Of a stretch of 64,000 nucleotides of DNA, positions 20,081-36,427 are shown one piece after another. How positions within the stretch are numbered: the stretch's first letter is position 1; each line of letters opens with the position of its first letter. The position numbers and the translations under genes are program-made. The DNA is from Candidatus Moraniibacteriota bacterium (GTDB lineage Bacteria; Patescibacteriota; Minisyncoccia; Moranbacterales; UBA2206): the NCBI GenBank assembly GCA_049303795.1, contig JBAQNM010000015.1, positions 36,590-100,589 of the forward strand. Direction: 5' to 3'. The notes under the pieces are model-generated. The model was not told where the DNA came from and made no database searches. It worked only from the letters and a program-made list of their open reading frames with translations.

Positions 20081-20084
20081 CAAT

Positions 20085-20130
20085 TCAATTGTATTTGTAT
20101 TTTGCCTTATTTTTGGACAAAAATCAACCT
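20085..20130 (+). repeat. direct repeat, copy a (...TGCCTTATTTTNNGACAAAAATCAA)
   Basis: Matches copies at 33765-33818 and 36372-36427. Confidence 0.55.
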
Positions 20131-20192
20131 CTTTATATTTTTAAAAACAAAAAACCAGCTGATTGGGCTAGTTTCTAGATACCAGAGAATAC

Positions 20193-20807
20193 TTATCTTT
20201 CCGAAATGAATCGCAACTTATCTATCGCTGGAGTGTTATATATAAAATCAATTTTCTCTGAAACAATTTTAAGTATTTGCTGAGACGGCAGAGGCAGTAT
20301 TATACTGAAATTTTGATTTGGTGCTGGTGGCGTAGGCATTGTCGCCTGATTTACATTCACAACATTAATAAAATTACTATTTTGATGATCAGAAATTTTT
20401 TCAATCACAACATCTAAATATGCAGCATTTGTATAGAATCTACTTATAATGTCAATTTCTGATTCCTTAAGATCATTAACAAATAAATGAATATTTTTGT
20501 GCCAGCTATTGGTAGGCAAAAGTTTATCGGCAAGTTGATAGTTATAATCATTCACGCGAGCATCTTTTATTTGATGCTCTGCATATCTAATTTCTTGTAT
20601 AATCAATTGAGCAGAGTCCCGTTTATGATCAGACTTTTGTTTTAAATATAATGCTATAGCGGTTCCACCAACTAGTAATGTGACGATGGCCAAAAAGAAA
20701 TTAGAATTAAAAAAAGTATTAAATTTTGTATAAGATAAATATGCTAATGACGACCCAATTCCCAAGAGTAATATATAAAAACTTATTATATTCTTATCTT
20801 TTTTCAT
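20193..20807 (-). CDS. hypothetical membrane protein (2 N-terminal TM), co-operonic with the proteasome-like gene
   Basis: 204-aa ORF starting 4 nt after the stop of the upstream gene. Two hydrophobic helices. Confidence 0.55.
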   Translation of the reverse strand: MKKDKNIISFYILLLGIGSSLAYLSYTKFNTFFNSNFFLAIVTLLVGGTAIALYLKQKSDHKRDSAQLIIQEIRYAEHQIKDARVNDYNYQLADKLLPTNSWHKNIHLFVNDLKESEIDIISRFYTNAAYLDVVIEKISDHQNSNFINVVNVNQATMPTPPAPNQNFSIILPLPSQQILKIVSEKIDFIYNTPAIDKLRFISER

Positions 20808-20811
20808 AAAA

Positions 20812-21738
20812 TTATTCTATTTTTAGCTCTTTTTGCTTAATCCAGTTAAAACCACTCGGAGTTAGAACTAAAACATCCACAGGTCCACCGACACCAGGAA
20901 TATCACCTGGATCAGCTTGGATTCCATCAGAAAATCTTTGCAATGCTGCGGTTGTTTGTATAACCAGAACAGTAAAATCAATAGCGTCCTGAAGTGTCAT
21001 TGCCCCCCAATTTATGGCATATTCCAGTCCATTAAGTTGCTTCTCTATTTCTGCTTGTTTACCATTCTTTACACTTTCAACAACAAAAGGTGCATTAAAA
21101 ATTCTAGGATCCCAACCCTTAACAATTCTTGTAACAACATCGGTTTGTCCAAGCCAGCCAGCACCGTATTCTAAATTCTGTTGTTTGCTATCTCTCATTT
21201 TTAAAACTTCTCCTGGCACATTAACATTGTAAACTTCATGTGAACCGTCCGCGTTATATCCAGCAACAAATAAAGCTAACCCATCCACTGTTCCAATTCC
21301 ATCTTTAACTATTCCTGCTTTATCCTTAAATTTAAATTTTATACCAGGCGCCTCCTTTTTGATTTCCAAAAGTTCTAATCCTTGATTGGATAAATCAATT
21401 TTTACACGTTCCATGAGCTTATCCAACTCTGCATCAGGATTAATCTTCTTATCAAAAAGATAATGCAATTTATCAGCAACGTCTCTCACTGAAAAGTCTG
21501 CCACTTCAACCTCCCGCTTAAACTGCTCAATAAATTTACTAATATTTTTAAGTACACCATTCTCCTGAATAAAAGCAATCCCAGTTATTGCAACACCTAT
21601 GCGATCATTTATTAAAAATAATTTAGTAGCAGAATCAGAACCAACCCTAGAAACGCCTTTTTGATTTCTGTAAGATTGACGACTATCAGCTGCTAAAACC
21701 ATGCCTTCTGGCGTTGTTGTATTTATAGCTAAACTCAT
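20812..21738 (-). CDS. proteasome beta-subunit/HslV-like Ntn-hydrolase family protein with a C-terminal extension
   Basis: N-terminus ...NTTTPEGMVLAADSRQS...SATKLFLINDRIGVAITG parallels proteasome beta TT(I)VG..VVLAADTR...K(33)...AG. Putative Thr1 after a short propeptide; Lys at +33. An extra ~100 aa at the C-terminus. Confidence 0.5.
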   Translation of the reverse strand: MSLAINTTTPEGMVLAADSRQSYRNQKGVSRVGSDSATKLFLINDRIGVAITGIAFIQENGVLKNISKFIEQFKREVEVADFSVRDVADKLHYLFDKKINPDAELDKLMERVKIDLSNQGLELLEIKKEAPGIKFKFKDKAGIVKDGIGTVDGLALFVAGYNADGSHEVYNVNVPGEVLKMRDSKQQNLEYGAGWLGQTDVVTRIVKGWDPRIFNAPFVVESVKNGKQAEIEKQLNGLEYAINWGAMTLQDAIDFTVLVIQTTAALQRFSDGIQADPGDIPGVGGPVDVLVLTPSGFNWIKQKELKIE

Positions 21739-21829
21739 ATAATTGATTTTACTTTATTTAAAAGCCTTCTTATCCTATTTTACCATATTTAACATAAAAA
21801 TCAACCCGTAATTAAAAGGTATACTTGCT

Positions 21830-21867
21830 AACCAAGTAGGTTCCAACTTCATCCCATAGCCTCAACA
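21830..21867 (+). repeat. dispersed intergenic repeat, copy 2
   Basis: AACCAAGTAGGTTCCAACTTCATCCCATAGCCTCAACA. Confidence 0.55.
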
Positions 21868-21878
21868 TTTCACTAACT

Positions 21879-21906
21879 TAGGCTCATTTGAGCCTTTTTT
21901 ATTTTA
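21879..21906 (+). terminator. hairpin plus T-run immediately 3' of repeat copy 2
   Basis: AGGCTCA-TT-TGAGCCT followed by TTTTTTATTTT. Confidence 0.5.
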
Positions 21907-21911
21907 ACCTC

Positions 21912-21940
21912 TGGACAAGTGGCGTTTTTTGTGCTATACT
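21912..21940 (+). promoter_or_regulatory. sigma70-type promoter
   Basis: TGGACA, then 17 nt, then TATACT, with TG at -15/-14. About 50 nt upstream of ATG 21991. Confidence 0.55.
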
Positions 21941-21990
21941 TTCCAGTTAACGGTGAAAATGACAATCATTCAGAAAAAGGAGAGTTCTTT

Positions 21991-22293
21991 ATGAAAAATT
22001 TCGTTGAAACCTATCTGGTAGGTGTAGCAGTTCAGGCTCTTGCTAGTTTTTGCGAAAAGAAGGGCGTAAAGCTCCTTCCGCATACCCTTGCGGATATCGC
22101 AATGACTTGGCGGGAAAGAAGAACTTTTGAATGGACCCCCTGCGAGCCAGCTTTTCGGAGGATTATGTTCATCAATCCGCTCCAAACGGGTGCCAATGTT
22201 GCGGTGGTATTTAACTACCAAGACATCGACAGCTCACTGACTGAGGAGCTTAACAGGAGCATTTACAATGCCACCAACAATCGTTGGGCATAA
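21991..22293 (+). CDS. hypothetical protein, GC-richer than its surroundings
   Basis: RBS AAAGGAGAG precedes ATG 21991 (the track ORF starts at 21919). 100 aa. Local GC is clearly above the backbone. Followed by a ~140-nt GC-rich 3' region and a strong terminator. Confidence 0.45.
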   Translation: MKNFVETYLVGVAVQALASFCEKKGVKLLPHTLADIAMTWRERRTFEWTPCEPAFRRIMFINPLQTGANVAVVFNYQDIDSSLTEELNRSIYNATNNRWA

Positions 22294-22433
22294 TGGCCAC
22301 GATTACACGGGCTGGCACCGTTGTGTTGAAGGCCGATTGACTGACGAACGCCATCCGGAGTGGAATTACAAAACTGGAAAAACTCGCTACAGCTAGCCCA
22401 ACAAAAACGGCCGTTTCTATCACTGAAACTTTG

Positions 22434-22480
22434 GACGACCCGCCCGCTCGAAAGAGCAAAGTGGTCGTCTTTTTTTTATT
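22434..22480 (+). terminator. rho-independent terminator
   Basis: GACGACC...GCTC-GAAA-GAGC...GGTCGTC two-tier hairpin followed by TTTTTTTTT. Confidence 0.65.
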
Positions 22481-22498
22481 TTTCTAAACCATAGCAGA

Positions 22499-22536
22499 AA
22501 CCAAGTAAGTTCCCACTTCTTCTCACAACCTCAATA
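22499..22536 (+). repeat. dispersed intergenic repeat, copy 3
   Basis: AACCAAGTAAGTTCCCACTTCTTCTCACAACCTCAATA. Confidence 0.5.
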
Positions 22537-22656
22537 TTGTGCGAAATATATGCGGTATAAGGTATTCCGATTTTATCAAGATATGCACTCTGATTATGGT
22601 CGGAGCTTCCTCAATATTCAACAAATTAGGCTTTTTAGGCCTTTTTATTTTTCACA

Positions 22657-22685
22657 ATTGACAAAATCCCAAGAACATACTAATA
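22657..22685 (+). promoter_or_regulatory. near-consensus sigma70 promoter plus a conserved ~110-nt leader (module P1)
   Basis: TTGACA, 17 nt, TAATAT. The downstream leader TTTTTATCCTAATTGGGGTAAGAATTGG...CATAAAGGAGA is shared with the leader at 35300-35410. Confidence 0.65.
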
Positions 22686-22803
22686 TCCATAGTCCGCTCT
22701 TTAACAAGTTTAATCATCCAATTTTTATCCTAATTGGGGTAAGAATTGGGTGATTAATAAAATAGGAACTAAAAAACAATCATACACATAAAGGAGAGGG
22801 TCC

Positions 22804-23418
22804 ATGAACAAGCGGAAAGAAAGCATTGCAGAATTTTTTAAAATATTTACTACTCCCCATATGGTATCATCGTTGATGGCAATAATCGTATTTGTCGTAG
22901 CCGTACGATACTTTACTCAGGCCTGGTGGAATATTGATTTCGATGATACCATTTCGGAAGTCGAGTACGTACCACCAACGAAGGTTCACTTCAAAATGAT
23001 CCGCGGAAGAGATATCAGAAAGGAAGAATTGACAGAAATTCTAAGTGAAAATCTTTTTTGGCAAATCGCCAAGAACGCCGATGTAGAAGTTTTAGCTCAA
23101 AACAAAGGTGCGGACATTCAAAACATCTTGCTTTATGTAAGCTTTGACAATGATAAAGATGTTGTTGTGCATAAATTGATGTTCATGCCAAAGCCAGCAG
23201 TGGATTATTGTGACAACCTCCTGTTGACTTATGGCGCGTTTGCGTCACAAATCAAGGACGACAGAATCGTCTTTTACTGCAAATGGCACAAGGCACCAAC
23301 TATCATTGCTTCCACATTGACATTCATAGCCAGCTTAGCAGTGGCGGCTATTGCATGGGGGTTATCGATGCTCATTATGAGCCTTGTGCTACTGATGCTA
23401 TTTAACTCCCCCCGATAA
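22804..23418 (+). CDS. hypothetical membrane protein with N- and C-terminal TM; paralog of 35411-36049
   Basis: Shares architecture with its paralog: N-terminal TM, a conserved FWQIAKNADVEV / FWEIARDSDVEV block and a C-terminal TM helix. Same leader and RBS. Confidence 0.6.
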   Translation: MNKRKESIAEFFKIFTTPHMVSSLMAIIVFVVAVRYFTQAWWNIDFDDTISEVEYVPPTKVHFKMIRGRDIRKEELTEILSENLFWQIAKNADVEVLAQNKGADIQNILLYVSFDNDKDVVVHKLMFMPKPAVDYCDNLLLTYGAFASQIKDDRIVFYCKWHKAPTIIASTLTFIASLAVAAIAWGLSMLIMSLVLLMLFNSPR

Positions 23419-23518
23419 TTTCCTCCCGGTTTTTTTAAAAATTAAAAAAACGGTTGACCAATTAAGGCAAACCGCTTTTGTTTTAATATAAACTACACTT
23501 ATTATACAAATAGTTCTT

Positions 23519-24559
23519 TTATTTTAATGCGTAACGCAATTGAGATGATAAAGAATTCTTGCCGCCTCGATCAGAGATATTATAGGAACCAAAAGGCAAA
23601 TAGTTGCAACCAACCGCATCCACATCTGTATTGAAACATCCTATTTTAGTCTCAAAAAACGGCATTTTTTCAATAATTTCAATCATCTGCTCCGCTGTTT
23701 CTTTTTGAGTAAGCGGTCTATTGATGCCGCCTTCTTCCTCCTGTCGCATCTTTTGTGCATAAAGACTTTGAATGCCCGCATTTACCCCCATAAAAGTAAG
23801 AAATCGTGGTCGGATAACCCCTAGTAATTCAGCGGTGCGTTCAACGTGTTCAATATAATGTTTAATCCCACCAAGTCCCGGCATTATCATTACTGAAGTG
23901 TTCATATTAACCGTCCTTAAAATAGTTGCTGCATCTATCATATTCCTACTTGTACATCCTTTTTGTACATAACGAAGCACATCATCAGAGCCAGATTCAA
24001 CGCCCCAGTAGATCAAATCCAAAACAGCAGGAAAATATTTACTACGCACATACCATTTTTTTCCTTTACGCCATCTTCCGCCGTGGCAAAGATTAGCCAT
24101 ACCATCTTTTCCATGCTTCAAAATATCTGTAGTACGACCATACAAAGCAACACGATTCGGTGTTCTGCCTATGTTTTTGGAAAATTCAATTTGTGTATAC
24201 AAAAGAAGCTGATGAAGCATTTCTCCGTCGATATTTAAGGAATTGCCCCCTCCTACAAAAATGCGCTTAAGTTTCCTTGAAAAATATTTTTCGCCAATAA
24301 GTCTCCAGATATTGTCGACATGTTGTTTATATTCTTCTGGAGTTTTTATGGAATATTTTATTCCACAATATCCTCCGCAGAAAGTACATTTTCCCCAGCT
24401 ACATCCCTTGGTCAACTCAAATTGTATTACATGATCTAGTCTTTCTGATGGAGGTGAAAACATATTTGGCGAACTGTATAAACCTGGAATTCTATATAGA
24501 TCTTCTAAGCTTTTCATCCTCTCACTCCTTTCTACATTGATATTTTTAAAAAAAAACAA
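23519..24559 (-). CDS. radical SAM-superfamily protein with a non-canonical CX4CX2C motif
   Basis: KGCSWGKCTFCGG cluster motif, FVGGGNSL (GGE-like SAM motif) and GVESGSDDVLRYVQKG (the GxES(G)S...L...KG radical-SAM motif). Confidence 0.55.
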   Translation of the reverse strand: MFFFKNINVERSERMKSLEDLYRIPGLYSSPNMFSPPSERLDHVIQFELTKGCSWGKCTFCGGYCGIKYSIKTPEEYKQHVDNIWRLIGEKYFSRKLKRIFVGGGNSLNIDGEMLHQLLLYTQIEFSKNIGRTPNRVALYGRTTDILKHGKDGMANLCHGGRWRKGKKWYVRSKYFPAVLDLIYWGVESGSDDVLRYVQKGCTSRNMIDAATILRTVNMNTSVMIMPGLGGIKHYIEHVERTAELLGVIRPRFLTFMGVNAGIQSLYAQKMRQEEEGGINRPLTQKETAEQMIEIIEKMPFFETKIGCFNTDVDAVGCNYLPFGSYNISDRGGKNSLSSQLRYALK

Positions 24560-24692
24560 ATTCCTGTTTTAAAGAACATTTATATTACCCCCAAATCATA
24601 TACATTTTTTCATTTTTGTCAAGGAATACGTCTTAAATTCTAATCTAATTATCACAATCTTAGAAGAAAAGCCAGACAAACTCAAAATTATC

Positions 24693-25313
24693 CTAGAATC
24701 CCAAGATTTGTCTGACAAAAATAATGTGAATCCTATTAGGAACGAATTCTTTTTCAACTAGCAATATTTTTCCAATCACACTACCAGCATAGTCACTATT
24801 TTTCATGCGCTGATCTTCCAACGGGAAAACATATTCTCCGAGCCTAGTAAAGGCATCCTCCAAATTTTCCGTGATCTTATGTGCTCCAACCACCCAGATA
24901 ACATGCGGACTCGTAAATGCGTATGATGGCAATTGACTGCCTGTCGCACTAGCGTCCAAAACAACACCATCCTTTGTTATGGCATGGATACTGCCTAAAA
25001 AATAATCCGCCAGAACGCTTTTTCTACGCAATTCGTTTTGTTTGGTCAAATCCTCTTCCGCCAGCACTTCTTCTTTTAGATTTTTCCAAGAATGTTTACC
25101 AGATTTTAAAAATTCAGAAAAACCAATCTGATCTAGCGTCGTTGAACTACCAGTCATCAAACTAACACCGGCGGGAATGAGTTCTTTTAATCTATCCAAC
25201 GCCTGCGTTTGATCGTCCACAATTTCGGCTGAAATATTCCTATTTTTTAGGTTTTCAATCACTTTTTTAATAACGGCTTTTGTTGGGATTTTTTCCCATT
25301 TAGAATTACTCAT
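24693..25313 (-). CDS. LUD-domain (LutC/YkgG-like) protein
   Basis: LMTGSSTTLDQIG...HVIWVVGAHKI pattern typical of DUF162/LUD. Confidence 0.6.
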   Translation of the reverse strand: MSNSKWEKIPTKAVIKKVIENLKNRNISAEIVDDQTQALDRLKELIPAGVSLMTGSSTTLDQIGFSEFLKSGKHSWKNLKEEVLAEEDLTKQNELRRKSVLADYFLGSIHAITKDGVVLDASATGSQLPSYAFTSPHVIWVVGAHKITENLEDAFTRLGEYVFPLEDQRMKNSDYAGSVIGKILLVEKEFVPNRIHIIFVRQILGF

Positions 25314-25545
25314 ATAATTTTTAAATTAAACATTTATACTCTGTTATTTTAATACGATATTTCCAGTATAATTATTACACTATAGCTTTTGATTTCAAAG
25401 AAATTGTTTGCTACACTTTATTTACTAAAAATGATACTATAATCTCGTCTCTTAAATTGAGAAGTTTATCAAGAAGTGGTTTTTTATTTTAGAAGTATAG
25501 TTATAATATAAGACTTAATCCAAAAAAAATTAAATATTTTGAAAT

Positions 25546-26289
25546 ATGAAAGAAAACTATTTGACCGCTGAAAATTATTATGAAACTTATTCCGGTTGGG
25601 ATCTCAGATTGATGTATGAAAGAATAAAAAAAATGCAAATTCCAGATAATAATCGGGAGCAACTTAGCACAAAAGAAAAAGCAAATATATTAATTTTGGG
25701 ATCGGCCACGCCAGACAATCTTTCTCGTATTGCCCAAATCGATTCTTATCTTCGACCAGGTAAAGTTGAACAAGATGTGGCTATAATTATTGATCAAAAT
25801 ATGCATCCTCTTGCGAAACATAAAGAGGATATTCTTTGTCTTGAAGGCAAGGATGGATGGAGTAATACACCAAAATCTACACCAGAATTCCCTCTTCCAA
25901 AATTTGAATTGTCCCAAGCTGATATCAGAGAACTCCCTTTTAAAAATAATGAAGTTGATATAATCATATCTGACTACACTCTCAATTACTTAGAAACTAT
26001 TGAGGACATCAATAGAACATTTGAAGAAATTTCTCGCGTACTCTCAACAAATGGACTTGTTTTTATCTCCCTTAGAGGCAATGAAAAATATCCTTACCAA
26101 AAAGAAAACCCCATCAAATTGCAAAATGATGTACAGCAAAAAAATCAAGGAGGTGTAATGGTTAATTATTTCCCCTTACACACCTACTTCGAGATTGCTA
26201 AAAATCATAACTTAAATATCGTCAATACTGATAATGCTGGAACGGATATTTGCGCTCTTATAGTCAAAAAGCAAGAATCACCCAATTGA
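25546..26289 (+). CDS. putative class I SAM-dependent methyltransferase
   Basis: Motif-II/III-like segments: IRELPFKNNEVDIIISDYTLNYL then LSTNGLVFISL. Motif I is atypical. Confidence 0.5.
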   Translation: MKENYLTAENYYETYSGWDLRLMYERIKKMQIPDNNREQLSTKEKANILILGSATPDNLSRIAQIDSYLRPGKVEQDVAIIIDQNMHPLAKHKEDILCLEGKDGWSNTPKSTPEFPLPKFELSQADIRELPFKNNEVDIIISDYTLNYLETIEDINRTFEEISRVLSTNGLVFISLRGNEKYPYQKENPIKLQNDVQQKNQGGVMVNYFPLHTYFEIAKNHNLNIVNTDNAGTDICALIVKKQESPN

Positions 26290-26373
26290 TTGATTCTTTT
26301 TTTGCATAAAAAAATGACTGCCTAGTAATCTAGAACAGTCATTAAATAGAAACACGTAAGTTACAACCTCACA

Positions 26374-27261
26374 TCAACTGCACGGGTCGTCATCTCGATC
26401 ATGATGATCATTATACTTCCTACTGGCTTTATCATATCCTTCTTCATAACCATCCGTGTAGCCTTTGCTATGCCCAGCCGCTTTGCCTTTTCCATAGCCA
26501 GCCTTATAGCCTTTCGCATGACCATCAATATAGCCCGCTGTTAGCCCTTGATCATAGGTTCCTTTACCGTAACTACCGATAATAGTCCACTCCAGACCGA
26601 TTTCGGAAGCTTTTTTTACAAGATCAAGAAAATTATCGACCTTGTCCGGCTCATTTTTGAGCATATGGACAATGCAGAGTATCAGTTCGTGATAGAGAGT
26701 CGCCTCACTAAGATTGAGCAGATTGATTGCCTCCAGAATATTCAAGCTTCTGCCCGCACTCCATGTGTGCAAGCTAATTGCATCCATTATGAATTGGCTC
26801 AACTCTCCTCCTGCCAAATCCCAGATCGCAAAACATCTCCGAATGTATTCTTTGCCTACAGCAGCATCATAAAGTTTTTTTATTTCGATGGCGTACGCCT
26901 CGACCTTCACTTTGTCTTTTTCAGCAGAAAGGGTTCTGAGTTTTTTCGGTCCCAGAGTTGAATAGATATAGGCCCCGTTCCGGATGAGTGTTACCGCGAA
27001 GTCATCATCCATAGCGTTATCGATAACAATCTGGAAAAAATCAGACAGGTCTCCGGATTTTAGTTGTTCGATTATGACCATTCCCTGGCGAATAATTTCA
27101 AGACACGCCTTCGATGGTTGACTTAATGGGACCGCGTTCCTGATGCTATAAGCACCATTTAGGAATATGTCCACAACAGTCACTCCCATAGATTCAAGGA
27201 TTTCACTCAAATCGTCTCCACCGCCGAGTGATTGCAATCTTCTTTTTTGTTCATCGTTCAT
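26374..27261 (-). CDS. hypothetical protein with a C-terminal Gly/Tyr repeat (GYxxG..)
   Basis: 295-aa ORF with GC distinctly above the backbone. C-terminal GYIDGHAKGYKAGYGKGKAAGHSKGYTDGYEEGYDK repeats. Confidence 0.5.
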   Translation of the reverse strand: MNDEQKRRLQSLGGGDDLSEILESMGVTVVDIFLNGAYSIRNAVPLSQPSKACLEIIRQGMVIIEQLKSGDLSDFFQIVIDNAMDDDFAVTLIRNGAYIYSTLGPKKLRTLSAEKDKVKVEAYAIEIKKLYDAAVGKEYIRRCFAIWDLAGGELSQFIMDAISLHTWSAGRSLNILEAINLLNLSEATLYHELILCIVHMLKNEPDKVDNFLDLVKKASEIGLEWTIIGSYGKGTYDQGLTAGYIDGHAKGYKAGYGKGKAAGHSKGYTDGYEEGYDKASRKYNDHHDRDDDPCS

Positions 27262-27543
27262 CTGTCATCCTCCCTTTCGATTGTTGTAAGTTAATAAACG
27301 ACCATTGTTAATGTAAATTTAAAAGAACTTTCAATCTTACACCAAAAAATCAACGCTGTCAATGCACGATTGACAAAAATCAATTTTAATAGTATTATCG
27401 AAAATCGATCATTAAAAATTAAATACTCATTTGAGTAGCAATAAGAATGTAAATCTGTATATTATTATTTTATTACTACTCATATAACCCAGCAAAAAAA
27501 CTATAATCATTTATCCACATCAAATCAAAATAAGGAGTTTCCG

Positions 27544-28059: not shown

Positions 28060-28836
28060 TTATTTCCTTAATTCTTTTGACCCTACCCATAAGCCTTCGA
28101 ACATAGCTGACATAGTTTCATTTATTTCATTCGATTGAATAAGCACGGCAGAAATATTTTTAATAGACGTTATGAAAGCCACTTTATCATCAAAGATAAT
28201 TATGACTGACTGAAATCTACCTTGCATTATTTTAGGCAAATAGCGCGGATTACGTTCGCGCATATCCTCTGGAGTCAAACTTTTCGCATCTGAAACATAT
28301 TCCCAAAGCGAGCGCGATTGAATGTTATTTTCTTTTCGTGTTTTTAAATAATAACGAGCATAACTAGAATCAAATTCACTAAAAAAATTCTTCTTCGGTG
28401 CAATAATATTCCACTGACGACTCCTGCAGTAAAGCGCTTCCTCGACCACCAATTTTATCCCTTCAATACCCTCAAAATGAGAAACCTTGAAAGTATCTTC
28501 TTTTTGCTTAACGCGATCAAGAAGTAGCGGAATAACACTTTCAATTTCCTGTTTTCTTTCTTGAAGCAATCTTATCTCACGATCAAAAAATTTTTTAATA
28601 TTTTCTGGCGAAGTCATAGAGAATATTAATTTGGCCCCCGTCCCACTTTCCCGTTTTGAAGCTAATCCCTTTTGAATCAAAGTATTCAGAGCATGATAAA
28701 TAGTCGTCCTATTAATACGCGTTGTTTTTTCCAATTCCTTAACACCAATTGAATCATAAGAGAGACCTCTTAAATAAATTTCTATTTCCGTATCAGTTAA
28801 ACCCATCTTTTGAAGAATAGTTTTCACTTGAGACAT
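28060..28836 (-). CDS. TrmB-family transcriptional regulator
   Basis: N-terminal wHTH LGLTDTEIEIYLRGLSYDSIGVKELEKTTRINRTTIYHALNTLIQKGLASKR typical of TrmB. Start at internal Met (the track ORF begins at 28890). Confidence 0.65.
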   Translation of the reverse strand: MSQVKTILQKMGLTDTEIEIYLRGLSYDSIGVKELEKTTRINRTTIYHALNTLIQKGLASKRESGTGAKLIFSMTSPENIKKFFDREIRLLQERKQEIESVIPLLLDRVKQKEDTFKVSHFEGIEGIKLVVEEALYCRSRQWNIIAPKKNFFSEFDSSYARYYLKTRKENNIQSRSLWEYVSDAKSLTPEDMRERNPRYLPKIMQGRFQSVIIIFDDKVAFITSIKNISAVLIQSNEINETMSAMFEGLWVGSKELRK

Positions 28837-29061
28837 AAACTTGTAATAATAATTATATCCGCATTTTACCCCATATTCTTTTTTTGTCAATTTATATTTG
28901 AACTATATAATGCTTTTTTTAAGGCATATCACAAGCTTGTCATTCATTCATTATAAACACATATTAACACTTTTTTTATTTCCATTAATATAAAGTTATG
29001 ATGAGTTCTTTAAAAATAAACAAATTTGATTTTTAATCTTCAAGAGAAAGGAAACAAAATT

Positions 29062-29733
29062 ATGAAATCTACTACAATGAAAGTACTCGTTACTGCTGGC
29101 AGCACACTTATGTCGATCGATCAGGTACGTGCGATCACTAATATTTTTAAAGGAAAAACAGGTACTGCGATCGCGACATTCATTGCGCACACAAAGGCAG
29201 ATGTCACATTGGTTACATCAAATCCAGCTATTGCGTCAAAGATCGATACGATGAGTGTCATTCCCTATAAGACATATGCAGATCTTGCTGAGATCATGGA
29301 GCAGCAAATCGTGCATGGTGCATATGATATCATCATCCACTCAGCTGCAGTAAGTGATTTTTTTGTGAGTAATGTATGTGTGATGGATACAGATGGTCAA
29401 CTAGTAAAAATTGACGCGACAAAAAAAGTATCATCAGCATATCCAAAACTCTATTTGGAACTCTCTCCCACTGAAAAGCTTATCAATAAGATTCGGTCTG
29501 ATTGGGGTTATTCTGGGAAGCTGATCAAATTTAAACTGGAGGTTGAAAAAACGTATGATGAATTGATCTCGATCGCTATAGCAAGTGTTCGAGCGTCTGG
29601 AGCTGATCTCATTGTTGCAAATTGCCTTGAATGGTGTGATCGATCAGCTGTGATCATATATGCAGACGGTGCATATATAGAAGTCGATCGTCACAAGTTA
29701 CCAGAGGAATTATGGAGGAGGATAAACAGATGA
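29062..29733 (+). CDS. coaB: phosphopantothenate-cysteine ligase (stand-alone CoaB)
   Basis: KVLVTAGSTLMSIDQVRAITNIFKGKTG matches the CoaB/Dfp C-terminal signature (TAGxTxExIDxVRxIxNxSxGxxG). Stop TGA overlaps the coaC ATG (ATGA). Confidence 0.78.
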   Translation: MKSTTMKVLVTAGSTLMSIDQVRAITNIFKGKTGTAIATFIAHTKADVTLVTSNPAIASKIDTMSVIPYKTYADLAEIMEQQIVHGAYDIIIHSAAVSDFFVSNVCVMDTDGQLVKIDATKKVSSAYPKLYLELSPTEKLINKIRSDWGYSGKLIKFKLEVEKTYDELISIAIASVRASGADLIVANCLEWCDRSAVIIYADGAYIEVDRHKLPEELWRRINR

Positions 29734-30281
29734 AAAAAATTCTATTAGGCGTAACGGGTAGTGTTGCCGCAAAATTGACGCCAAAACTGGTTAATCTTCT
29801 TGAGGCATCAGATTATGAAGTGCGAGTGGTTGCTACTGAGCAGTCTCTTTACTTTTGGGACTCGAAAGATGTAAACATCCCAATCTTTCGTGAGACAGAT
29901 GAATGGTCAGGTTTTGCCTATATAAAAGATCAAATCATCCCACATATTGCATTGTGTGATTGGGCTGATGTATTTCTTATTGCACCGCTCACTGCTAACA
30001 CACTCGCTAAAATGGCATGTGGCATATGTGACAATCTTATCACATCTGTGGTGAGAGCATGGCCGTTAGCAAAACCATTGATCGTAGCACCATCTATGAA
30101 TACACAAATGTGGAAAAACCCACTGACTAAAAAACATCTTACCAATCTCTCTGAATATTATCAGGCAATTATTATCCCGCCCATTGAAAAAAAATTGGCT
30201 TGTGGCGAAGAAGGTCTCGGGGCAATGGCTGAACTTTCAGATATCCTAAATATTTTAGCAGATATTATTGACAAAAAATAA
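29730..30281 (+). CDS. coaC: phosphopantothenoylcysteine decarboxylase / HFCD-family flavoprotein (stand-alone CoaC)
   Basis: ILLGVTGSVAA (FMN-binding), IAPLTANTLAKMACGICDNL, APSMNTQMW and LACGEEGLGAMAE motifs. Confidence 0.82.
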   Translation: MKKILLGVTGSVAAKLTPKLVNLLEASDYEVRVVATEQSLYFWDSKDVNIPIFRETDEWSGFAYIKDQIIPHIALCDWADVFLIAPLTANTLAKMACGICDNLITSVVRAWPLAKPLIVAPSMNTQMWKNPLTKKHLTNLSEYYQAIIIPPIEKKLACGEEGLGAMAELSDILNILADIIDKK

Positions 30282-30304
30282 TGATATCTCATCAAACCTC
30301 GCTG

Positions 30305-30345
30305 TTTTCAAAAAAACAGCGAGGTTTCTTTAATTAAAAAGCAAT
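30305..30345 (+). terminator. rho-independent terminator after coaC
   Basis: AAACCTCGCTGTTTTT-CAAAAAAACAGCGAGGTTT followed by CTTT. Confidence 0.7.
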
Positions 30346-30482
30346 TTTTAAATTATTATGAATACACAAAAACTGATTAATTAAATCAGTTAAGCGCATA
30401 CTTATTATAAATAAAAATCAAACTTACAAGTAAAATTACGGCTTTTTCTTGTTTTCACTTTTTCTTTTCTTAAGTTCTTTTT

Positions 30483-30526
30483 TTAAAAATAAAAAATTCC
30501 CATCCAGACATTTGTCCAGATGGGAA
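30483..30526 (-). terminator. terminator of the radical SAM gene
   Basis: TTCCCATC...GATGGGAA hairpin with a T-run on the minus strand (A-run 30485-30496 on plus). Confidence 0.5.
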
Positions 30527-30544
30527 TTTATGCAACAAGCAATC

Positions 30545-31972
30545 TTATAGCCAAAGCTCGTTTATAGATACGATTTGATCGGGAATAGCTCGCTCCAGAA
30601 TCCTCTCCTTCATCAGGTCAACAAATTCTGAAATGAGTCTATAAACATAGGCGTAGCAATCCATTCGCGGATAGTTGTTTTTCTGCACAACGCAACCACC
30701 GCCACACAAAGGACCAATATGGCAAATTCTGCAATCCTCCTTTTCCATAAAAGTCTTGCTCTTAAGTTTTGCTTCGTTTTCAGAAAAACCACTGCTTGCC
30801 TCGCCAATGCAGAAAGTATTATTATTGATAGTTCTTGGGCAATGAAAAATCCTTCCATCAGTTGAGAATACATAATGGAAACCTTTTTGAGGTTCACAAA
30901 AACCAAACTTGGGCCCCCAATACGTTTTATATCTGCCCAACCAATCGAAGCTATGGGTGAGGTGTGCAAGATATTTAAAACTTTCAAACTTCAGCTTGCC
31001 TCGAAGTTCAGGATGATTTTCCCAGAGCTCAATGATTGATTTCACCATTATCGCTTCGGTTATTTCATCCTTCCGAGAGTCCAGATTGGCATAATCATGA
31101 GAGCCTTCGATTCGCCACTGAAAATTAGATAAACTAAGCCAGCCTTTATCTTTAATGAACGAGGATAATTCTTCCAAGCAGTCCGCATTGCCTGCACCAA
31201 GAATAGTTTGCACCTTTACCTGAAAATTTCTTTTGAGCAGACTATCCACGGCCGAAACAACTTCGGTGAAAGATCCTTTGCCTCCCCTGAAAGGTCTTCG
31301 TAAATTGTGCGCATGAGAAGGTCCATCAATTGTTATCCGAAAATCGGATATAACCTCTCTGAACCTCTCGAAAACCTTCATAAAATTTAACACTCTAGAC
31401 CCATTGGTTACAATAACGCATTTCCAATTATTCCGCTCGGCCGTCTCCAGTATCCAATTAAGAATATTTCTGCTGGAAACCAGCAGTGGCTCTCCCCCGA
31501 AAATAATAAGATTCATCTTGTCCGCTGGTATATTCTTTTCTTCCTGAATCTTTTTTATCCGACTGCTTACATCCTCCAATACCCTCCTGCTGATTTGCGA
31601 ATTTTTTAGGATTTTTTTCTCATAGCAGATAGGGCAAGCGAAATTACAATTGAGCGTTGTAAGAACGTAGAACCAGTAGGGCACATGCTTGCCGTGCTCT
31701 TGACTAGTTTTAATTAGCCTCTCCAGTTGCAATGAATCATCATTCTGAATCAAATAGCCTCTTGAATTAAGAATATCCCCTTCTTTACTGTCAATTTTCC
31801 CCTCAAGAATTCTTTTGGGAACGATATCAATCGCTCCTGTGAGTGTGTTAATCAGCAACAAAAATAAATCACTGAGCTCAAATACAATTGTCCTTGCATT
31901 AAATATGGCCACGATAGTCTCCTTTATATAGGTCTTTATTATTTGGTATTTACTATTTTTAATATAAGTCAA
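30545..31972 (-). CDS. radical SAM / SPASM-domain protein with an N-terminal extension
   Basis: CX3CX2C (LNCNFACPICYEKK). C-terminal Cys-rich SPASM-like segment (CPRT...CRICHIGPLCGGGCVVQ...C). Extra ~100 aa at the N-terminus. Confidence 0.8.
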   Translation of the reverse strand: MTYIKNSKYQIIKTYIKETIVAIFNARTIVFELSDLFLLLINTLTGAIDIVPKRILEGKIDSKEGDILNSRGYLIQNDDSLQLERLIKTSQEHGKHVPYWFYVLTTLNCNFACPICYEKKILKNSQISRRVLEDVSSRIKKIQEEKNIPADKMNLIIFGGEPLLVSSRNILNWILETAERNNWKCVIVTNGSRVLNFMKVFERFREVISDFRITIDGPSHAHNLRRPFRGGKGSFTEVVSAVDSLLKRNFQVKVQTILGAGNADCLEELSSFIKDKGWLSLSNFQWRIEGSHDYANLDSRKDEITEAIMVKSIIELWENHPELRGKLKFESFKYLAHLTHSFDWLGRYKTYWGPKFGFCEPQKGFHYVFSTDGRIFHCPRTINNNTFCIGEASSGFSENEAKLKSKTFMEKEDCRICHIGPLCGGGCVVQKNNYPRMDCYAYVYRLISEFVDLMKERILERAIPDQIVSINELWL

Positions 31973-32048
31973 ATACTACTTGTGAAAGAACCAATGTTAA
32001 AGGATATAAGTAAAAATGAGGATAGTCAAGTCTCGATCTTCCGTTCAA

Positions 32049-32234
32049 TTATTCTTTCAGCTTCTCTAAATATTCCATGCCTTGCTTATAATTCTTAAAT
32101 TTATCCGCTTTTGCTCCAAAAAAAGATCTTGAATTTTTAAAAGGAAATGTCGAAAGTAAATTGAATGTAAAATTTGACCAATAAGGCACTTTGATTCGCT
32201 TACCTGGCGGTAGACAGAAATCCTTCCTCCTCAA
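32049..32234 (-). pseudogene. remnant of a HAD-hydrolase paralog
   Basis: The C-terminal ~22 aa (FGAKADKFKNYKQGMEYLEKLKE) align with the C-terminus of the HAD at 33845-34438 (LGMKTIEFKNYKQCVEDLEML), and the DNA similarity extends past the stop. The remainder of the ORF is not HAD-like. Confidence 0.45.
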
Positions 32235-32286
32235 CAGACGAGAAAAGTTTTAATATAGCCTTTTCATTGTGTTTAATTCACAGATA

Positions 32287-32315
32287 TTGACATGATGGCT
32301 ATTTTATGCTATCAT
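32287..32315 (+). promoter_or_regulatory. near-consensus sigma70 promoter (module P2)
   Basis: TTGACA, 17 nt, TATCAT. The -10/+1 region TATGCTATCATTGTTAGTTCATT is almost identical to the promoter at 35264. Confidence 0.65.
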
Positions 32316-32410
32316 TGTTAGTTCATTAGGGTGGTCCTAGTGAAAGTTCATTCCACTATCGATCTCAAAAAGATTTGGGACGAAAAGAAGAAAGGAAAGG
32401 AGAATACAAC

Positions 32411-32833
32411 ATGTCGTCAATTCATGGATGGAAAAATGGCGTAGCAGAGGGAAGGGCTGTTGGAAGTGAACTTACTCTTGCCAGGAAAGAAATTCTTAAT
32501 GCAGGAAATTTTGATTATCTCACTTCATACACTTATTTTCACACGTGCCCTCCTCGCATAAGAGGAGAATACCGCATAGGTAGCAGCGTGGGAACACTGG
32601 ACTACATCAATAAAGCAATGACCAAGTCCGTTGAATACAAGCTGATCATTGAATTTACAGACCTTGATGAAGCGTTAGTGTTGTATAATTTGATTCGAGG
32701 CGGAAAAATCTGGCCAGTCATCAACTATGAAGACCCTCAAGTGCCATCGCCCTGCCGTCACCTGAAAGATATTTTCCGTGAAGGCCTGGGAATTATCCGT
32801 CGCGAAATTGCAAAAAAACTGCACTTCGCATAA
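32411..32833 (+). CDS. hypothetical protein
   Basis: RBS AAAGGAGAA precedes ATG 32411. 140 aa. GC-richer than the backbone. Confidence 0.5.
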   Translation: MSSIHGWKNGVAEGRAVGSELTLARKEILNAGNFDYLTSYTYFHTCPPRIRGEYRIGSSVGTLDYINKAMTKSVEYKLIIEFTDLDEALVLYNLIRGGKIWPVINYEDPQVPSPCRHLKDIFREGLGIIRREIAKKLHFA

Positions 32834-32878
32834 TCACTCAATACAGCAAATGCACTAATTCAAGGAAAGGATTAAGTC

Positions 32879-33115
32879 ATGTATATAGACGATTCTCCCG
32901 TTCCAAATTTCCCACCGTCTTCGTCCGGACAAGTTATCGTTATCGATAAAACAGACAAGGACGCGGATTCTGTCATCGAGCTGGCCCGCGACGAAGGAGC
33001 TACCTCCATCGATGCTGACGGAGATGAAACCTTCTGGGTAGTTTTCTCCGATGAACCCCGTCGCGTGTGGGACTTCACTGAAGAAGCCCTGAGAGGGGAA
33101 ATTAAAAAGATGTAG
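32879..33115 (+). CDS. hypothetical small acidic protein
   Basis: RBS AGGAAAGGA. 78 aa, rich in D/E. Followed by a strong terminator. Confidence 0.45.
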   Translation: MYIDDSPVPNFPPSSSGQVIVIDKTDKDADSVIELARDEGATSIDADGDETFWVVFSDEPRRVWDFTEEALRGEIKKM

Positions 33116-33150
33116 CTCGCGTAACACCCGAGCATAACACATTCAAAACA

Positions 33151-33183
33151 GGGTCACTAGATATTTCTAGTGACCCTTTTTCT
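33151..33183 (+). terminator. rho-independent terminator
   Basis: GGGTCACTAGA-TATTT-TCTAGTGACCC followed by TTTTTCT. Confidence 0.75.
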
Positions 33184-33285
33184 ATGATAAATTCAACGAA
33201 GATATTTTAATTTAATTCCATAACCTAAATACTGGCTTAAATTAGCCATTTCTTGCTTATTTTACTCAAATCGCTATCACGGCAC

Positions 33286-33313
33286 TTGACAAGTTCCATA
33301 GATAGTGTATACT
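33286..33313 (+). promoter_or_regulatory. near-consensus sigma70 promoter (module P3) driving a noncoding unit
   Basis: TTGACA, 16 nt, TATACT, preceded by the AATTAGCCATTTCTTGCTT box that also precedes promoter P4. Confidence 0.55.
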
Positions 33314-33770
33314 GTAGTGTACGATTGGTTGATTTACAATTTTTGTCACTCGAAAGATTTTCGAAAAATAGCCCTGGCATGAACAGTTGTGCTCGCAAAC
33401 AGGATGAAATTCGAAATTCAATCGAAACTTGATTTATCCGATGCAAGAGGTGCATTAGGCAATCAAGGATGAAAGTTGCGAATGCAACTGATCGTAGGTA
33501 GTGGTTCTTTTATTTTTTATTTTTTAAGAAAAACGTTGCGTGCATGTAAGCGCAACGCGAGAGTGCAAGTATTTTTTTATTTTTGTTCAAAAGTAAGACC
33601 CTTGCGAGCACTAGCCGTCTGAATTGAATCTGATTTAAGCACAATGTGGATTCGGTCAGAAGTTCGTTTAGATGGCGAAAAATGGAGAAGGATCCACAAA
33701 AAGTCGAGACCAGACTATAATGGTCGAGTACCCAATCTATGGGGGATATGCGCTGCATATCCCCTTTTTT
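33314..33770 (+). ncRNA. candidate ~450-nt noncoding transcript bounded by a promoter and a terminator
   Basis: No credible ORF on the plus strand; the minus-strand ORFs look spurious. GC is above the backbone. Internal hairpins include GTTGCGAATGCAAC and CGTTGCGTGCATGTAAGCGCAACG. It ends in the terminator GGGGATATG-CGCTG-CATATCCCC-TTTTTT (33742-33770). Confidence 0.35.
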
Positions 33771-33818
33771 ATTTTCCAATTTCTAATCTCCCCTGCCTTA
33801 TTTTCAGACAAAAATCAA
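33765..33818 (+). repeat. direct repeat, copy b
   Basis: TTTTTTATTTTCCAATTTCTAATCTCCCCTGCCTTATTTTCAGACAAAAATCAAGC, about 85% identical to copy c. Confidence 0.6.
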
Positions 33819-33844
33819 GCTAGCTTTGCTATATAATATCAAAA

Positions 33845-34438
33845 TCAATTGCCTAAAAGCATTTCTAAATCTTCCACACATTGTTTATAATTCTTAAACT
33901 CGATCGTCTTCATTCCAAGAATTTTAGCAGGTTCTAGATTTTTTATTCTATCTTCAATATAAATACACTCCCCTGCTTCTAAATTCAATCTTTCAAGGAC
34001 TTTTTTATATATTTCTATATCTGGTTTTGCAAAACCCACATCATAAGACGTCACTATCACATCAAAAACTTCTCTAAATTTCTTCTCTTCCAAAATAGGC
34101 TCGAGCCAAGATTCTATCTGATTGGACAGTATCGCTAATTTATATTTACCCTGTAGATTATTTTTAACATAAGCATAAAGCTCATCGCGAAAGCCAGTGT
34201 ATTCAACAAAATATTTTTTGAATTTAAATGCATCCATTCCCACAAAAGCTCCAAGTTTTTCCCAGAAAATATTAGAATCTATTTTTCCAACTCTAGCTTC
34301 TAACCAAATAGACAGCCCTATCTCATTTGCTTTTTGCGAATCGACATTCAACTTCACAGCATTGTTCAACCAAAATTCCTGAATATCATCATTTATGGAG
34401 AAAACGCCGCCGAAGTCAAATATTATTGCTTTATACAT
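33845..34438 (-). CDS. HAD-superfamily hydrolase (canonical motifs)
   Basis: Motif I IIFDFGGV, motif II LSNQ, and YIEDRIKNLEP for motif IV. Confidence 0.75.
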   Translation of the reverse strand: MYKAIIFDFGGVFSINDDIQEFWLNNAVKLNVDSQKANEIGLSIWLEARVGKIDSNIFWEKLGAFVGMDAFKFKKYFVEYTGFRDELYAYVKNNLQGKYKLAILSNQIESWLEPILEEKKFREVFDVIVTSYDVGFAKPDIEIYKKVLERLNLEAGECIYIEDRIKNLEPAKILGMKTIEFKNYKQCVEDLEMLLGN

Positions 34439-34591
34439 ATATTTGCTAATTTTAATTATACCTTAATCATAGCACCCAATTAAATCATTTTCAATTATTC
34501 GCTTCTATACTAAAATAGGACGTTGAAATATTTTGTGATAGAATTTATTCAAACTGCTTTTAGTGTTTTGTCCTGAAAAATAATAAACCTT

Positions 34592-35170
34592 ATGCATTAT
34601 AAAAATAAAATTTTTGCAGAAAAAGAAGTTCGCGGTGAACATTTTTCTGATTGCCAATTTTCCGCTTGTTCCTTTCCTGAAATTAACCTAAAATTCACCA
34701 CTTTTAACAATTGCACATTCAATGCCTGCGATCTCTCATCCATCAACTGCGAAAGCACTGGCTTTTCCAATTGCTCTTTTCCTGAAAGTAAATTAAGCAA
34801 CCTAAACTTTCTGGCGGTCAAATTCACTGATTGCGATTTCTCTGGCGCTATCATGCAAAATTGCATCTTTGAAAAACGCCAAGGAATAAACAATTTGCCA
34901 GCGAAAAAATTCTCTCTCGCCGATTGTAAATTTGAAGAAACTGATTTATCAGGCAGTATCTTTTTTCTTTCTGATTTAACTGGAGTAAGCTTTAGAAACT
35001 CCAAACTAGAAAAGACTGGCTTTGAAAAATGCATTATCAGAAAAGTAGATTTTACCGGCGCAACAATCAATGGCGCACATTTCACAGATTGCACGATCGA
35101 AAAAACTATTTTGGATTTTCAAGGCTTTATTCATTTTGGCAATTCGCATGGGTTTGAGTTGAATGGTTAA
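34592..35170 (+). CDS. pentapeptide-repeat protein
   Basis: Tandem A(D/N)LxX-type pentapeptides throughout, for example FSDCQFSACSFPEINLKFTTFNNCTFNACDLSSINCE. Confidence 0.8.
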   Translation: MHYKNKIFAEKEVRGEHFSDCQFSACSFPEINLKFTTFNNCTFNACDLSSINCESTGFSNCSFPESKLSNLNFLAVKFTDCDFSGAIMQNCIFEKRQGINNLPAKKFSLADCKFEETDLSGSIFFLSDLTGVSFRNSKLEKTGFEKCIIRKVDFTGATINGAHFTDCTIEKTILDFQGFIHFGNSHGFELNG

Positions 35171-35263
35171 AATCATATAGACAGACAACCACTAACTTCT
35201 TTCTATGATCTCAAAGTTTTAAAAAATCGCCTCAATTAGCCATTTTTTGCTTTTCCTGATCGA

Positions 35264-35292
35264 TTGACAAAGAGCCTTAAATATGCTATCAT
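35264..35292 (+). promoter_or_regulatory. near-consensus sigma70 promoter plus conserved leader (module P4)
   Basis: TTGACA, 17 nt, TATCAT. The leader carries the palindrome CCTAATTAGG and shares about 100 nt with the P1 leader. Confidence 0.65.
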
Positions 35293-35410
35293 TTCAAGTT
35301 AGTTCATTGACAATATTGATCGTCCTATTTTTATCCTAATTAGGGGTAAAACTTGGACGATTAAGTATACTAAAAAAACCACACAAATCACTCATAAAGG
35401 AGACTCCGAA

Positions 35411-36049
35411 ATGAACAAAAAGGAAAAGCTCGTTGGATTTTTGAAAAAAATGGCAACCCCCGACAGCCTATCTGGAATAATTGCAGGCTTTATCTTTATT
35501 TTCATTATGATAGTTACAATCAACAGCTACCGGTCAATAAAGATCGACCCATGGAAAACAACAGAGGAGGTGCTTACTGCGCCAGTTCCAGCTACGCTGG
35601 TTAAAATCGGGAAAACCACCCCCAAAATATTGACGGTAATAGTCAATGAGCAAATTTTCTGGGAAATTGCCAGAGACTCGGATGTTGAAGTTTCAATTGA
35701 TTACAAGAAAGGGTTTGCAGAAGTGACTTATTTTAAACGTTTCGGCAAAGGCGAAATCGCGGTCATGCACAATTCCCTGTTCACGCCTAAAAAGCCCATG
35801 GATTCATTTCAGTCTTTTTTCAAATATGAACCATCGGCATTCCGCTTCGAAAATAATAAAATAATCTTTGATTATAGGTCAAGCCCAAGCCCCACTACTG
35901 CATATGGGGTAGTCATCCTTTCCGTGGTTAATCTAATGATTGCATTTTCATGTTGGTTTTTTTTATTTATTACCTTTAAGTTAGTACTTGATGAAAAACG
36001 GAAAGCGCTTTTCAAACGCAAAAAACAATTACCCATTAAGGAGGAATAA
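35411..36049 (+). CDS. hypothetical membrane protein, paralog of 22804-23418
   Basis: Same leader and RBS (CATAAAGGAGA), same start MNK(K/R)KE, and the conserved FWEIARDSDVEV block. Confidence 0.6.
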   Translation: MNKKEKLVGFLKKMATPDSLSGIIAGFIFIFIMIVTINSYRSIKIDPWKTTEEVLTAPVPATLVKIGKTTPKILTVIVNEQIFWEIARDSDVEVSIDYKKGFAEVTYFKRFGKGEIAVMHNSLFTPKKPMDSFQSFFKYEPSAFRFENNKIIFDYRSSPSPTTAYGVVILSVVNLMIAFSCWFFLFITFKLVLDEKRKALFKRKKQLPIKEE

Positions 36050-36050
36050 A

Positions 36051-36302
36051 ATGAAAAAGCACCTGTTAAGATTGGTTCTGTCCGGAGTGGAAGGCGTCAA
36101 AATCGTATGGTCTGACGTTGTTCCTGAGGCTGAAAAAGCCTACATCTTTGATGGCATTTCTGACCAAGTGCATTTCATCGGAGAAGTCAGTGTGTGCGAT
36201 AAGGATACCTATCGAGTCATTGAAGGAAATCCTTCCGCATTCAAAGAGGCATCCATTGCCTTAAAAAATCCGACAACCATCCAAGTCAAACCCATTGTCT
36301 AA
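36051..36302 (+). CDS. hypothetical small protein, translationally coupled
   Basis: RBS AAGGAGG lies inside the end of the upstream gene. ATG 36051 sits 1 nt after the upstream TAA. Confidence 0.45.
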   Translation: MKKHLLRLVLSGVEGVKIVWSDVVPEAEKAYIFDGISDQVHFIGEVSVCDKDTYRVIEGNPSAFKEASIALKNPTTIQVKPIV

Positions 36303-36347
36303 ATCCAGCAAAAAAATGCTAGAATTTAGGCGACTCCACCGTACACG

Positions 36348-36382
36348 GACCCTCTTTTCTCAAGAGGGTCCTTTTTTATTTT
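36348..36382 (+). terminator. rho-independent terminator
   Basis: GGACCCTCTT-TTCTCA-AGAGGGTCC followed by TTTTTTATTTT. Confidence 0.75.
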
Positions 36383-36427
36383 CCAATTTATTAATTTCCC
36401 CCTGCCTGATTTTTAGACAAAAATCAA
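36372..36427 (+). repeat. direct repeat, copy c
   Basis: TTTTTTATTTTCCAATTTATTAATTTCCCCCTGCCTGATTTTTAGACAAAAATCAAAT. Confidence 0.6.

Follow-up and report, generated by a model that had tools for sequence, protein, structure and literature searches.

Correia elements of Neisseria are promoter-bearing small intergenic repeats, and the housekeeping bacterial core promoter, that of sigma-70, consists of a -35 hexamer (TTGACA), a 17-bp spacer and a -10 hexamer (TATAAT). To our knowledge, promoters of the candidate phyla radiation are almost uncharacterised, and we know of no function for the LOOT RNA (Rfam family RF03000); a literature search on this RNA yielded no functional information. The prevailing bacterial promoter layout combines a 17-bp spacer with a 5-bp discriminator and a start triplet of the type pyrimidine-purine-pyrimidine (YRY) (PMC12641261). 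Here we describe a short direct repeat present in three copies in a 64,000-nt stretch of contig JBAQNM010000015.1 from a Candidatus Moraniibacteriota bacterium (the whole stretch is called the window below). The repeat is best understood as a real, low-copy, lineage-specific promoter module that comprises the promoter of a LOOT RNA and two derived copies.

A pattern search of the window with the 26-nt sequence CTGCCTkATTTTnAGACAAAAATCAA found it at 20102–20127, 33793–33818 and 36402–36427 (copies 1, 2 and 3), all on the plus strand. The three copies share a 24-nt core, GCCTkATTTTnnGACAAAAATCAA, in which the two variable positions just 5' of GACA read TG, CA and TA. No match to the core pattern was found in 100 dinucleotide shuffles, so that none is expected by chance, and an independent repeat finder recovered the three-copy core again; the direct repeat reported in the first-pass annotation is therefore real. 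Copies 2 and 3 have an additional 31-nt segment in common (33763–33793 and 36370–36400, 84% identity) and align with each other over ~55 nt, from the T-run of a terminator to the final AAATCAA, whereas copy 1 shares with them the core and a weaker CAATT farther to the left. Two profile searches of the window revealed no significant copy beyond these three; a looser version of the core pattern gave 7 matches against 3.1 expected. A profile search of 46 kb of unique related DNA that had been picked without reference to the motif found no copy of the core. The possibility of a generic motif scattered over many unrelated intergenic sites of the genome was rejected on these results: the element is low-copy and tied to a neighbourhood of dnaX, tRNA-Gln and LOOT. 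Correia elements resemble it in being short intergenic repeats able to give their neighbours promoter hexamers, possibly in both directions. They differ from it in copy number, which is very low for the core (3 in 64 kb and none in the 46 kb of unbiased related DNA), and the core has neither terminal inverted repeats nor a target-site duplication nor other signs of transposition.

We consider it likely, from the architecture described below, that the core represents the -35 hexamer and the 17-nt spacer of a lineage-specific promoter of the sigma-70 type, copies 2 and 3 being derived from it. Copy 1 is the most complete case. The GC-rich structured element on whose 3' side it had been placed by the first-pass annotation turned out to be a LOOT RNA gene on the minus strand (19958–20081), which matches the model over its full length with a cmscan score of 57.5 bits (gathering score 46.4), so that copy 1 in fact lies 5' of the RNA, at a distance of 23 nt from where it begins. 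On the minus strand, the predicted promoter (20099–20127) consists of the -35 hexamer TTGATT (20127–20122), the 17-nt spacer TTTGTCCAAAAATAAGG (20121–20105) and the -10 hexamer CAAAAT (20104–20099); it is followed at 20088–20098 by the discriminator ACAAA and an invariant TACAAT. Since the TAC matches the YRY triplet, initiation is predicted at the A in position 20092, that is, 11–12 nt ahead of the first base of the Rfam LOOT model. We infer that copy 1 is a complete sigma-70-type promoter of the LOOT RNA on the minus strand, with a transcription start at about 20092. The 204-aa gene upstream of it (20193–20807, minus strand) ends in an intrinsic terminator (20150–20176, minus strand) just ahead of the promoter, and a small open reading frame (ORF) for a 56-aa membrane-like protein (19738–19908, minus strand) follows LOOT and would probably be co-transcribed from copy 1. 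A homolog of this ORF region in locus L021 of a relative is directly preceded by a diverged copy of the promoter, and the region is also found in locus L043. In loci L001, L005 and L019, the gene behind LOOT encodes a DUF2726 protein, the place taken in the window by the 56-aa ORF on the same strand; LOOT may be a 5' leader besides, or instead of, a free small RNA.

The core was then sought in relatives. Exact-pattern scans of genome and metagenome collections returned 27 loci, about 16 of which are distinct, intergenic and from AT-rich, Moraniibacteriota-like contigs, the others being chance matches in coding DNA. LOOT stands beside the core in six of these loci with the geometry seen in the window, i.e. 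on the opposite strand and 23 nt apart (this spacing was observed in L001, L005/L016, L019, L021 and L027, and also in L043), and the covariance scores of LOOT in relatives, 77–87 bits, exceed the gathering threshold. The consensus on the LOOT strand is TTGATT, TTTGTCCAAAAATAAGG (17 nt) and CA(G/A)AAT. Among 19 pattern-ascertained instances, the five bases that lie outside the search pattern read A[GA]AAT in 12, and a co-oriented gene or RNA (in the orientation of TTGATT) starts at most 135 nt from the core in 15. The genes found behind the core are LOOT (6 cases), DpnI, NgoPII, tRNA-Gln followed by a GIY-YIG gene, a RadC-Dam methylase fusion, a cytidylyltransferase and several unknowns. A comparison of the window proteins around copy 1 with all loci (tblastn) indicated that the flanking genes are not common to L001 or L005.

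When ten regions upstream of LOOT were aligned, positions A2, A5 and T6 of the -10 hexamer were invariant, as was TACAA, five nucleotides past the -10. TTGATT, a TTG-type -35 with four of six consensus matches that is present in all three window copies, was found in 8 of the 10, the remaining two having ATTTGT and TTCAAT. All ten loci, which come from related metagenomic genomes, thus carry the same succession of -35, spacer and -10 at a constant distance from LOOT, with a spacer of 16–17 nt leading to a -10 in which A2 and T6 are retained, as in copy 1 (17 nt, CAAAAT) and in contrast to copies 2 and 3 (CAGGGG). The hexamer pair is kept, 16–17 nt apart, even in the diverged LOOT promoters of L012 (TTGATT-16-TATAAT) and of two short LOOT variants in L019, one of which (L019c) reads TTCAAT-17-TAAAAT. 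As an observation apart, three variants of LOOT are found in L019 (8667–8750 and 9461–9547): a full-length one and two that are short and have terminators of their own.

A comparison free of bias towards the motif is provided by L043/L044, which were retrieved through the proteasome-like protein of the window; L043 counts among the ten LOOT loci. They are 85.6% identical to positions 21868–19914 of the window and preserve the order of a 308-aa gene, a 204-aa gene, a terminator, the core, LOOT (86.5 bits) and a small membrane ORF. Their element reads TTGATT-TTTATCCGAAAATAAGG-CAATAT, with an unchanged -35 and a -10 that retains A2, A5 and T6; the spacer of L043 has substitutions at 2 of 17 positions, about the background divergence, which break the dyad described below. 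The sequences themselves show the architecture, the constant distance that separates it from LOOT and its repeated occurrence in front of co-oriented genes in relatives; actual initiation and promoter strength are inferred from them. In summary, copy 1 and its relatives resemble a sigma-70 core promoter in the TTG type of the -35, the length of the spacer (17 nt, or 16 in L012), the invariant A2 and T6 of the -10, the 5-nt discriminator, the YRY triplet where the start is predicted and the co-oriented gene downstream; what sets them apart is a spacer that is quasi-palindromic and unusually well kept among the copies found, hexamers that each match the consensus at only 4 of 6 positions, and the loss of the -10 from two of the three window copies. 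With respect to LOOT, ten loci have the element as the conserved stretch directly in front of the RNA, and TACAA would probably belong to the 5' end of the transcript; the Rfam model excludes the promoter, and the core also occurs without LOOT.

The alignment of copies 2 and 3 with copy 1 extends beyond the core as far as the AATTG of the start region, which indicates that all three descend from the same module of about 46 nt. Each of the two follows a plus-strand terminator and precedes a gene on the plus strand. Copy 2 (33763–33818, core 33795–33818) begins in the T-run TTTTTATTTT of an 11-pair terminator hairpin (33741–33765, plus strand) that ends an ORF-less transcript of ~450 nt, and copy 3 (36370–36427, core 36404–36427) in the T-run TTTTTTATTT of a 10-pair hairpin (36347–36371, plus strand); at both sites a GC-rich hairpin is followed by a T-run, as in an intrinsic terminator. 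The statement that each copy lies 3' of a structured or terminator element accordingly holds for these two copies and fails for copy 1. On the minus strand both read TTGATT-17-CAGGGG, their -10 having been lost, and transcription in that direction would enter the plus-strand terminator with no gene behind it. On the plus strand, the xxGACA within the core may serve as a -35. For copy 3, it forms part of a promoter-like site, TAGACA-17-TAGTAT (36414–36442, 9 of 12 consensus matches), which stops 6 nt short of the ATG (36449) of a gene for an MFS transporter (36449–37567, plus strand) whose start is conserved in homologs; an mRNA from this site would be essentially leaderless. Because a strong terminator stands immediately upstream of the MFS gene, a promoter is needed within the 78 nt that contain copy 3. 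The corresponding hexamer of copy 2 is CAGACA (33805–33810). In L020, an ortholog of copy 2 with flanks 81–84% identical lies directly upstream of a pentapeptide-repeat gene, and TGGACA-17-TATATT is found there 51 nt before the ATG, an arrangement that would be a second case of re-use in reverse; in the window, an HAD-hydrolase gene on the opposite strand (33845–34438, minus strand) separates copy 2 from the pentapeptide gene. This HAD gene with its own promoter (33819–34581) is present in the window and in near-identical strains and absent from L020. Copies 2 and 3 would thus be either relics or elements re-used in the plus direction. The fallback offered by the first-pass annotation, a conserved terminator and promoter unit with GACA as the -35-like hexamer, comes nearer to this evidence; it was mistaken about copy 1 and most relatives, which read on the opposite strand, the -35 there being TTGATT, the reverse complement of AATCAA, in front of the LOOT RNA.

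Several observations weigh against a promoter module of this kind. With TTGATT and CAAAAT, copy 1 has only 8 of 12 consensus matches and falls below the threshold of the promoter scan. In copies 2 and 3, L020 and L011, the core is near-perfect although the TTGATT orientation offers no usable -10, a persistence that a promoter alone would not call for. The exact 24-nt identity among loci is in part an ascertainment effect of exact-match scans. Across all instances, -10 matches on the plus strand after the core were no better than expected by chance, and no such element was found upstream of the MFS orthologs of three relatives. The invariance of TACAAT could also mean that this hexamer is itself the -10 of the LOOT promoter, with a start at about 20081. 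We rejected this except as a minor alternative: TACAAT has no -35 at a distance of 16–18 nt, and L012 has a perfect TATAAT at the other of the two -10 positions.

We regard it as possible, though at less than even odds, that copies 2 and 3 are neutral leftovers of a promoter duplication or rearrangement without present function, copy 1 alone being of consequence. The -10 is destroyed in both, MFS orthologs elsewhere do without the element, and 2 of the 24 core positions differ between copy 2 and its L020 ortholog, a number that we count as not below the ~4 expected at 81–84% identity. Set against this are the substitution pattern shared by the two copies (TCCCCTGCC), which suggests a common constraint or recent copying, and the MFS gene, which would need a promoter inside the 78 nt that hold copy 3. 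The persistence of intact cores where the -10 has gone (copies 2 and 3, L020 and L011) could also be explained if the core were chiefly an operator, bound over the -35 and spacer by a dimeric DNA-binding protein that controls LOOT and accessory genes in either orientation, a view that is compatible with a promoter. The core is indeed quasi-palindromic, CTTATTTTTG-GA-CAAAAAT(C)AAG, and only 1–2% of shuffles or of random 23-mers from the window score as well (P ~ 0.01–0.02); the same 24 nt recur in 16 different genomic contexts, and L011 has a tandem pair of copies 8 nt apart. However, exact identity is inflated by the exact-match search, and the one unbiased ortholog, L043, has two uncompensated substitutions in the spacer that break the dyad at about the background rate, which argues against strong constraint on it. 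The diverged LOOT promoters of L012, L019b and L019c likewise retain the -35 and -10 and not the palindrome, and no regulator gene recurs beside the element (clustering of ORFs across loci gave only dnaX, GIY-YIG and a few syntenic genes). We therefore judge an operator as the main role of the core to be unlikely.

The interpretation put forward originally, in which site-specific insertion of one or two islets (20.1–33.8 kb and 33.8–36.4 kb) left the copies behind as att-like or cassette-boundary repeats, appears very improbable. It draws on a resemblance to tRNA-linked att sites and to integron attI/attC sites: short direct repeats bracket blocks of genes in a variable region near a tRNA gene (tRNA-Gln, an integration hotspot in relatives), and accessory genes, among them restriction enzymes, nucleases and DUF2726, often stand right behind the element in other genomes. 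In addition, the HAD gene beside copy 2 is missing from L020, where the break in homology begins at the end of the core; a 102-aa ORF of L009 is enclosed by a perfect direct repeat of 71 nt; and L001 and L019 hold LOOT and DUF2726 (1.86 kb) between promoter copies that are adjacent in L011. Yet no integrase, transposase or resolvase was detected when the ORFs from 16.3 to 40.2 kb were scanned with Pfam, in agreement with the earlier remark that the block lacks an integrase or transposase. The block between 20085 and 36427 had been described as compositionally atypical, which was not borne out: its GC content is 0.365 against 0.354 outside, its tetranucleotide distances are within the range of the window, and it includes CoaB and CoaC, which are housekeeping, essential proteins of coenzyme A biosynthesis. 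Nor is there a common crossover point, since the repeat extends from a T-run to TCAA in the window, begins inside the core in L009 and measures 49 nt in L021, and the three window copies differ at the two positions 5' of GACA. In L043, the flanks of copy 1 are retained on either side, and the variable genes of this locus are situated between tRNA-Gln and the 56-aa ORF and not at the core. The integrative element in L045 uses a fragment of tRNA-Gln and has no core. An empty site, with the block gone, one copy left and the flanks joined, was not found among the relatives, which are thinly sampled, and L020 lacks the HAD gene only. With regard to integrons in particular, Pfam revealed no tyrosine recombinase, and the core, at 24 nt, falls short of the length of an attC and stands on the 5' side of the accompanying genes. 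Unlike att or attC sites, then, the element has neither a recombinase nor a fixed crossover, and its borders vary; it is best regarded as low-copy regulatory DNA, ordinary in kind, and not as the scar of inserted mobile islands.

The surroundings of the element remain odd in some respects. In eleven distinct genomes or contigs (the window and ten related loci), the core lies within 0.07–5 kb of tRNA-Gln, which occupies positions 16001–16073 (plus strand) of the window and serves as a landmark for the region where relatives carry the core, often ahead of restriction or nuclease genes. The tRNA-Gln neighbourhood is a variable hotspot (window 16001–16112, L004 and L045). In L004 (427–818), a GIY-YIG gene has tRNA-Gln on one side and, on the other, a 34-nt stretch that duplicates the 3' end of this tRNA perfectly. 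L045 (544–2127 and 1964–2031), the only clear integrative element seen in a relative, contains a large serine recombinase, an N6/N4 methylase, MutH, Rep and a 3' fragment of tRNA-Gln. One could imagine that the core promoter next to tRNA-Gln acts as a fixed expression platform behind which accessory genes are repeatedly captured or exchanged in Moraniibacteriota, the short, strongly conserved and perhaps protein-bound 24-mer being a portable patch of homology or recognition; the candidate cargo would be LOOT with DUF2726 and the restriction or nuclease genes (DpnI, NgoPII, GIY-YIG and RadC-Dam). Such a platform would be functionally similar to the Pc/attI of integrons without an integron integrase, and the tandem or split copies (copies 2 and 3 of the window, L009, L021, and the tandem cores of L011 where L001 and L019 have LOOT and DUF2726 inserted between them) would be its footprints. 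We think this improbable and offer it as speculation.

Two candidates for the origin of the repeat were rejected. The core had no match in 2.9 million viral contigs, which is at odds with a phage or mobile origin, and a replication-origin element in the vicinity of dnaA (38027–39367) is not indicated, as 19 unclustered DnaA boxes were found against 18 expected and the window contains no turn in GC skew. Some further observations concern duplications and assembly. In L009, the 71-nt repeat (5730–5800 and 6222–6292), whose start falls within the core, stands on both sides of the 102-aa ORF, which has a strong Shine-Dalgarno sequence; a duplication or insertion at the promoter appears to have taken place there recently. 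L040, a contig of a near-identical metagenome-assembled genome, begins almost exactly at the start of copy 2 (equivalent to ~33765 of the window), which fits with a repeat of ~55 nt breaking short-read assemblies. Near-identical strains (GCA_049296135.1, GCA_049286985.1 and GCA_049305975.1 are such strains) are colinear with the window, as judged by a comparison of synteny around the MFS gene.

The ORFs between 16 and 40 kb encode, besides CoaB and CoaC, a proteasome-like protein, two radical-SAM proteins, a LUD-domain protein, a methyltransferase, a TrmB-type regulator (28060–28890), an HAD hydrolase, a pentapeptide-repeat protein, an MFS transporter and DnaA. For the MFS transporter and the proteasome-like protein, counterparts with 100% identity exist in a metagenome-assembled genome of Candidatus Moraniibacteriota. 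The 308-aa proteasome-like protein (20193–21738, minus strand, together with its partner of ~204 aa) has >1000 homologs across the Patescibacteria, hundreds of them at 70–75% identity. It travels with the ~204-aa membrane protein, and the pair is found inside the apparent integrative element of L045; the two genes are possibly a mobile two-gene system. Paralogous membrane proteins of ~205 aa with no assigned function are encoded within the block at 22804–23418 and 35411–36049 (26% identity, E = 1e-13). The pentapeptide-repeat gene (34574–35172 in the window, 2333–2923 in L020 and 7542–8140 in L028) occurs in three unrelated neighbourhoods with a nucleotide identity of 82–84% and homology that stops at the gene borders, which suggests that this single gene moves between genomes or loci. 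Synteny via this gene was consequently uninformative about the block, the relatives having the gene in unrelated contexts.

The ORF-less transcript that would end at copy 2 is a candidate for a new structured RNA. At 33286–33775 (plus strand), a good promoter match (TTGACA-16-TATACT) precedes a stretch of ~450 nt and the strong terminator. The stretch has no conserved ORF and no codon periodicity, and its indels are not multiples of 3; conservation extends to L020 (81%) and, in part, to L014, and no credible Rfam family was assigned to it. Its predicted fold includes the long-range helices GATTGG/CCAATC and GTGCTCGCAA/TTGCGAGCAC, with 6 compensatory pairs in a comparison of two sequences only. 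A second small repeat (33226–33258 and 35220–35252, 82% identity), consisting of the hairpin GGCTnAAATTAGCC followed by TTTyTTGCTT, lies ~30 nt upstream of two separate TTGACA promoters, that of this putative non-coding RNA and that of a 212-aa gene. Its first copy continues as TTGCTTATTTTACTCAAATCG, which bears a weak, loose resemblance to the core, at the place where L014 has a perfect core.

As for what the repeat means, it should no longer be annotated as island boundaries. The LOOT RNA would gain a strand, a likely start (~20092, minus strand) and a conserved promoter, which would make expression constructs and look-ups in metatranscriptomes easier. The link between the element, tRNA-Gln and fast-changing genes of the defence type is only a lead, one that may bear on the turnover of accessory genes in tiny genomes.

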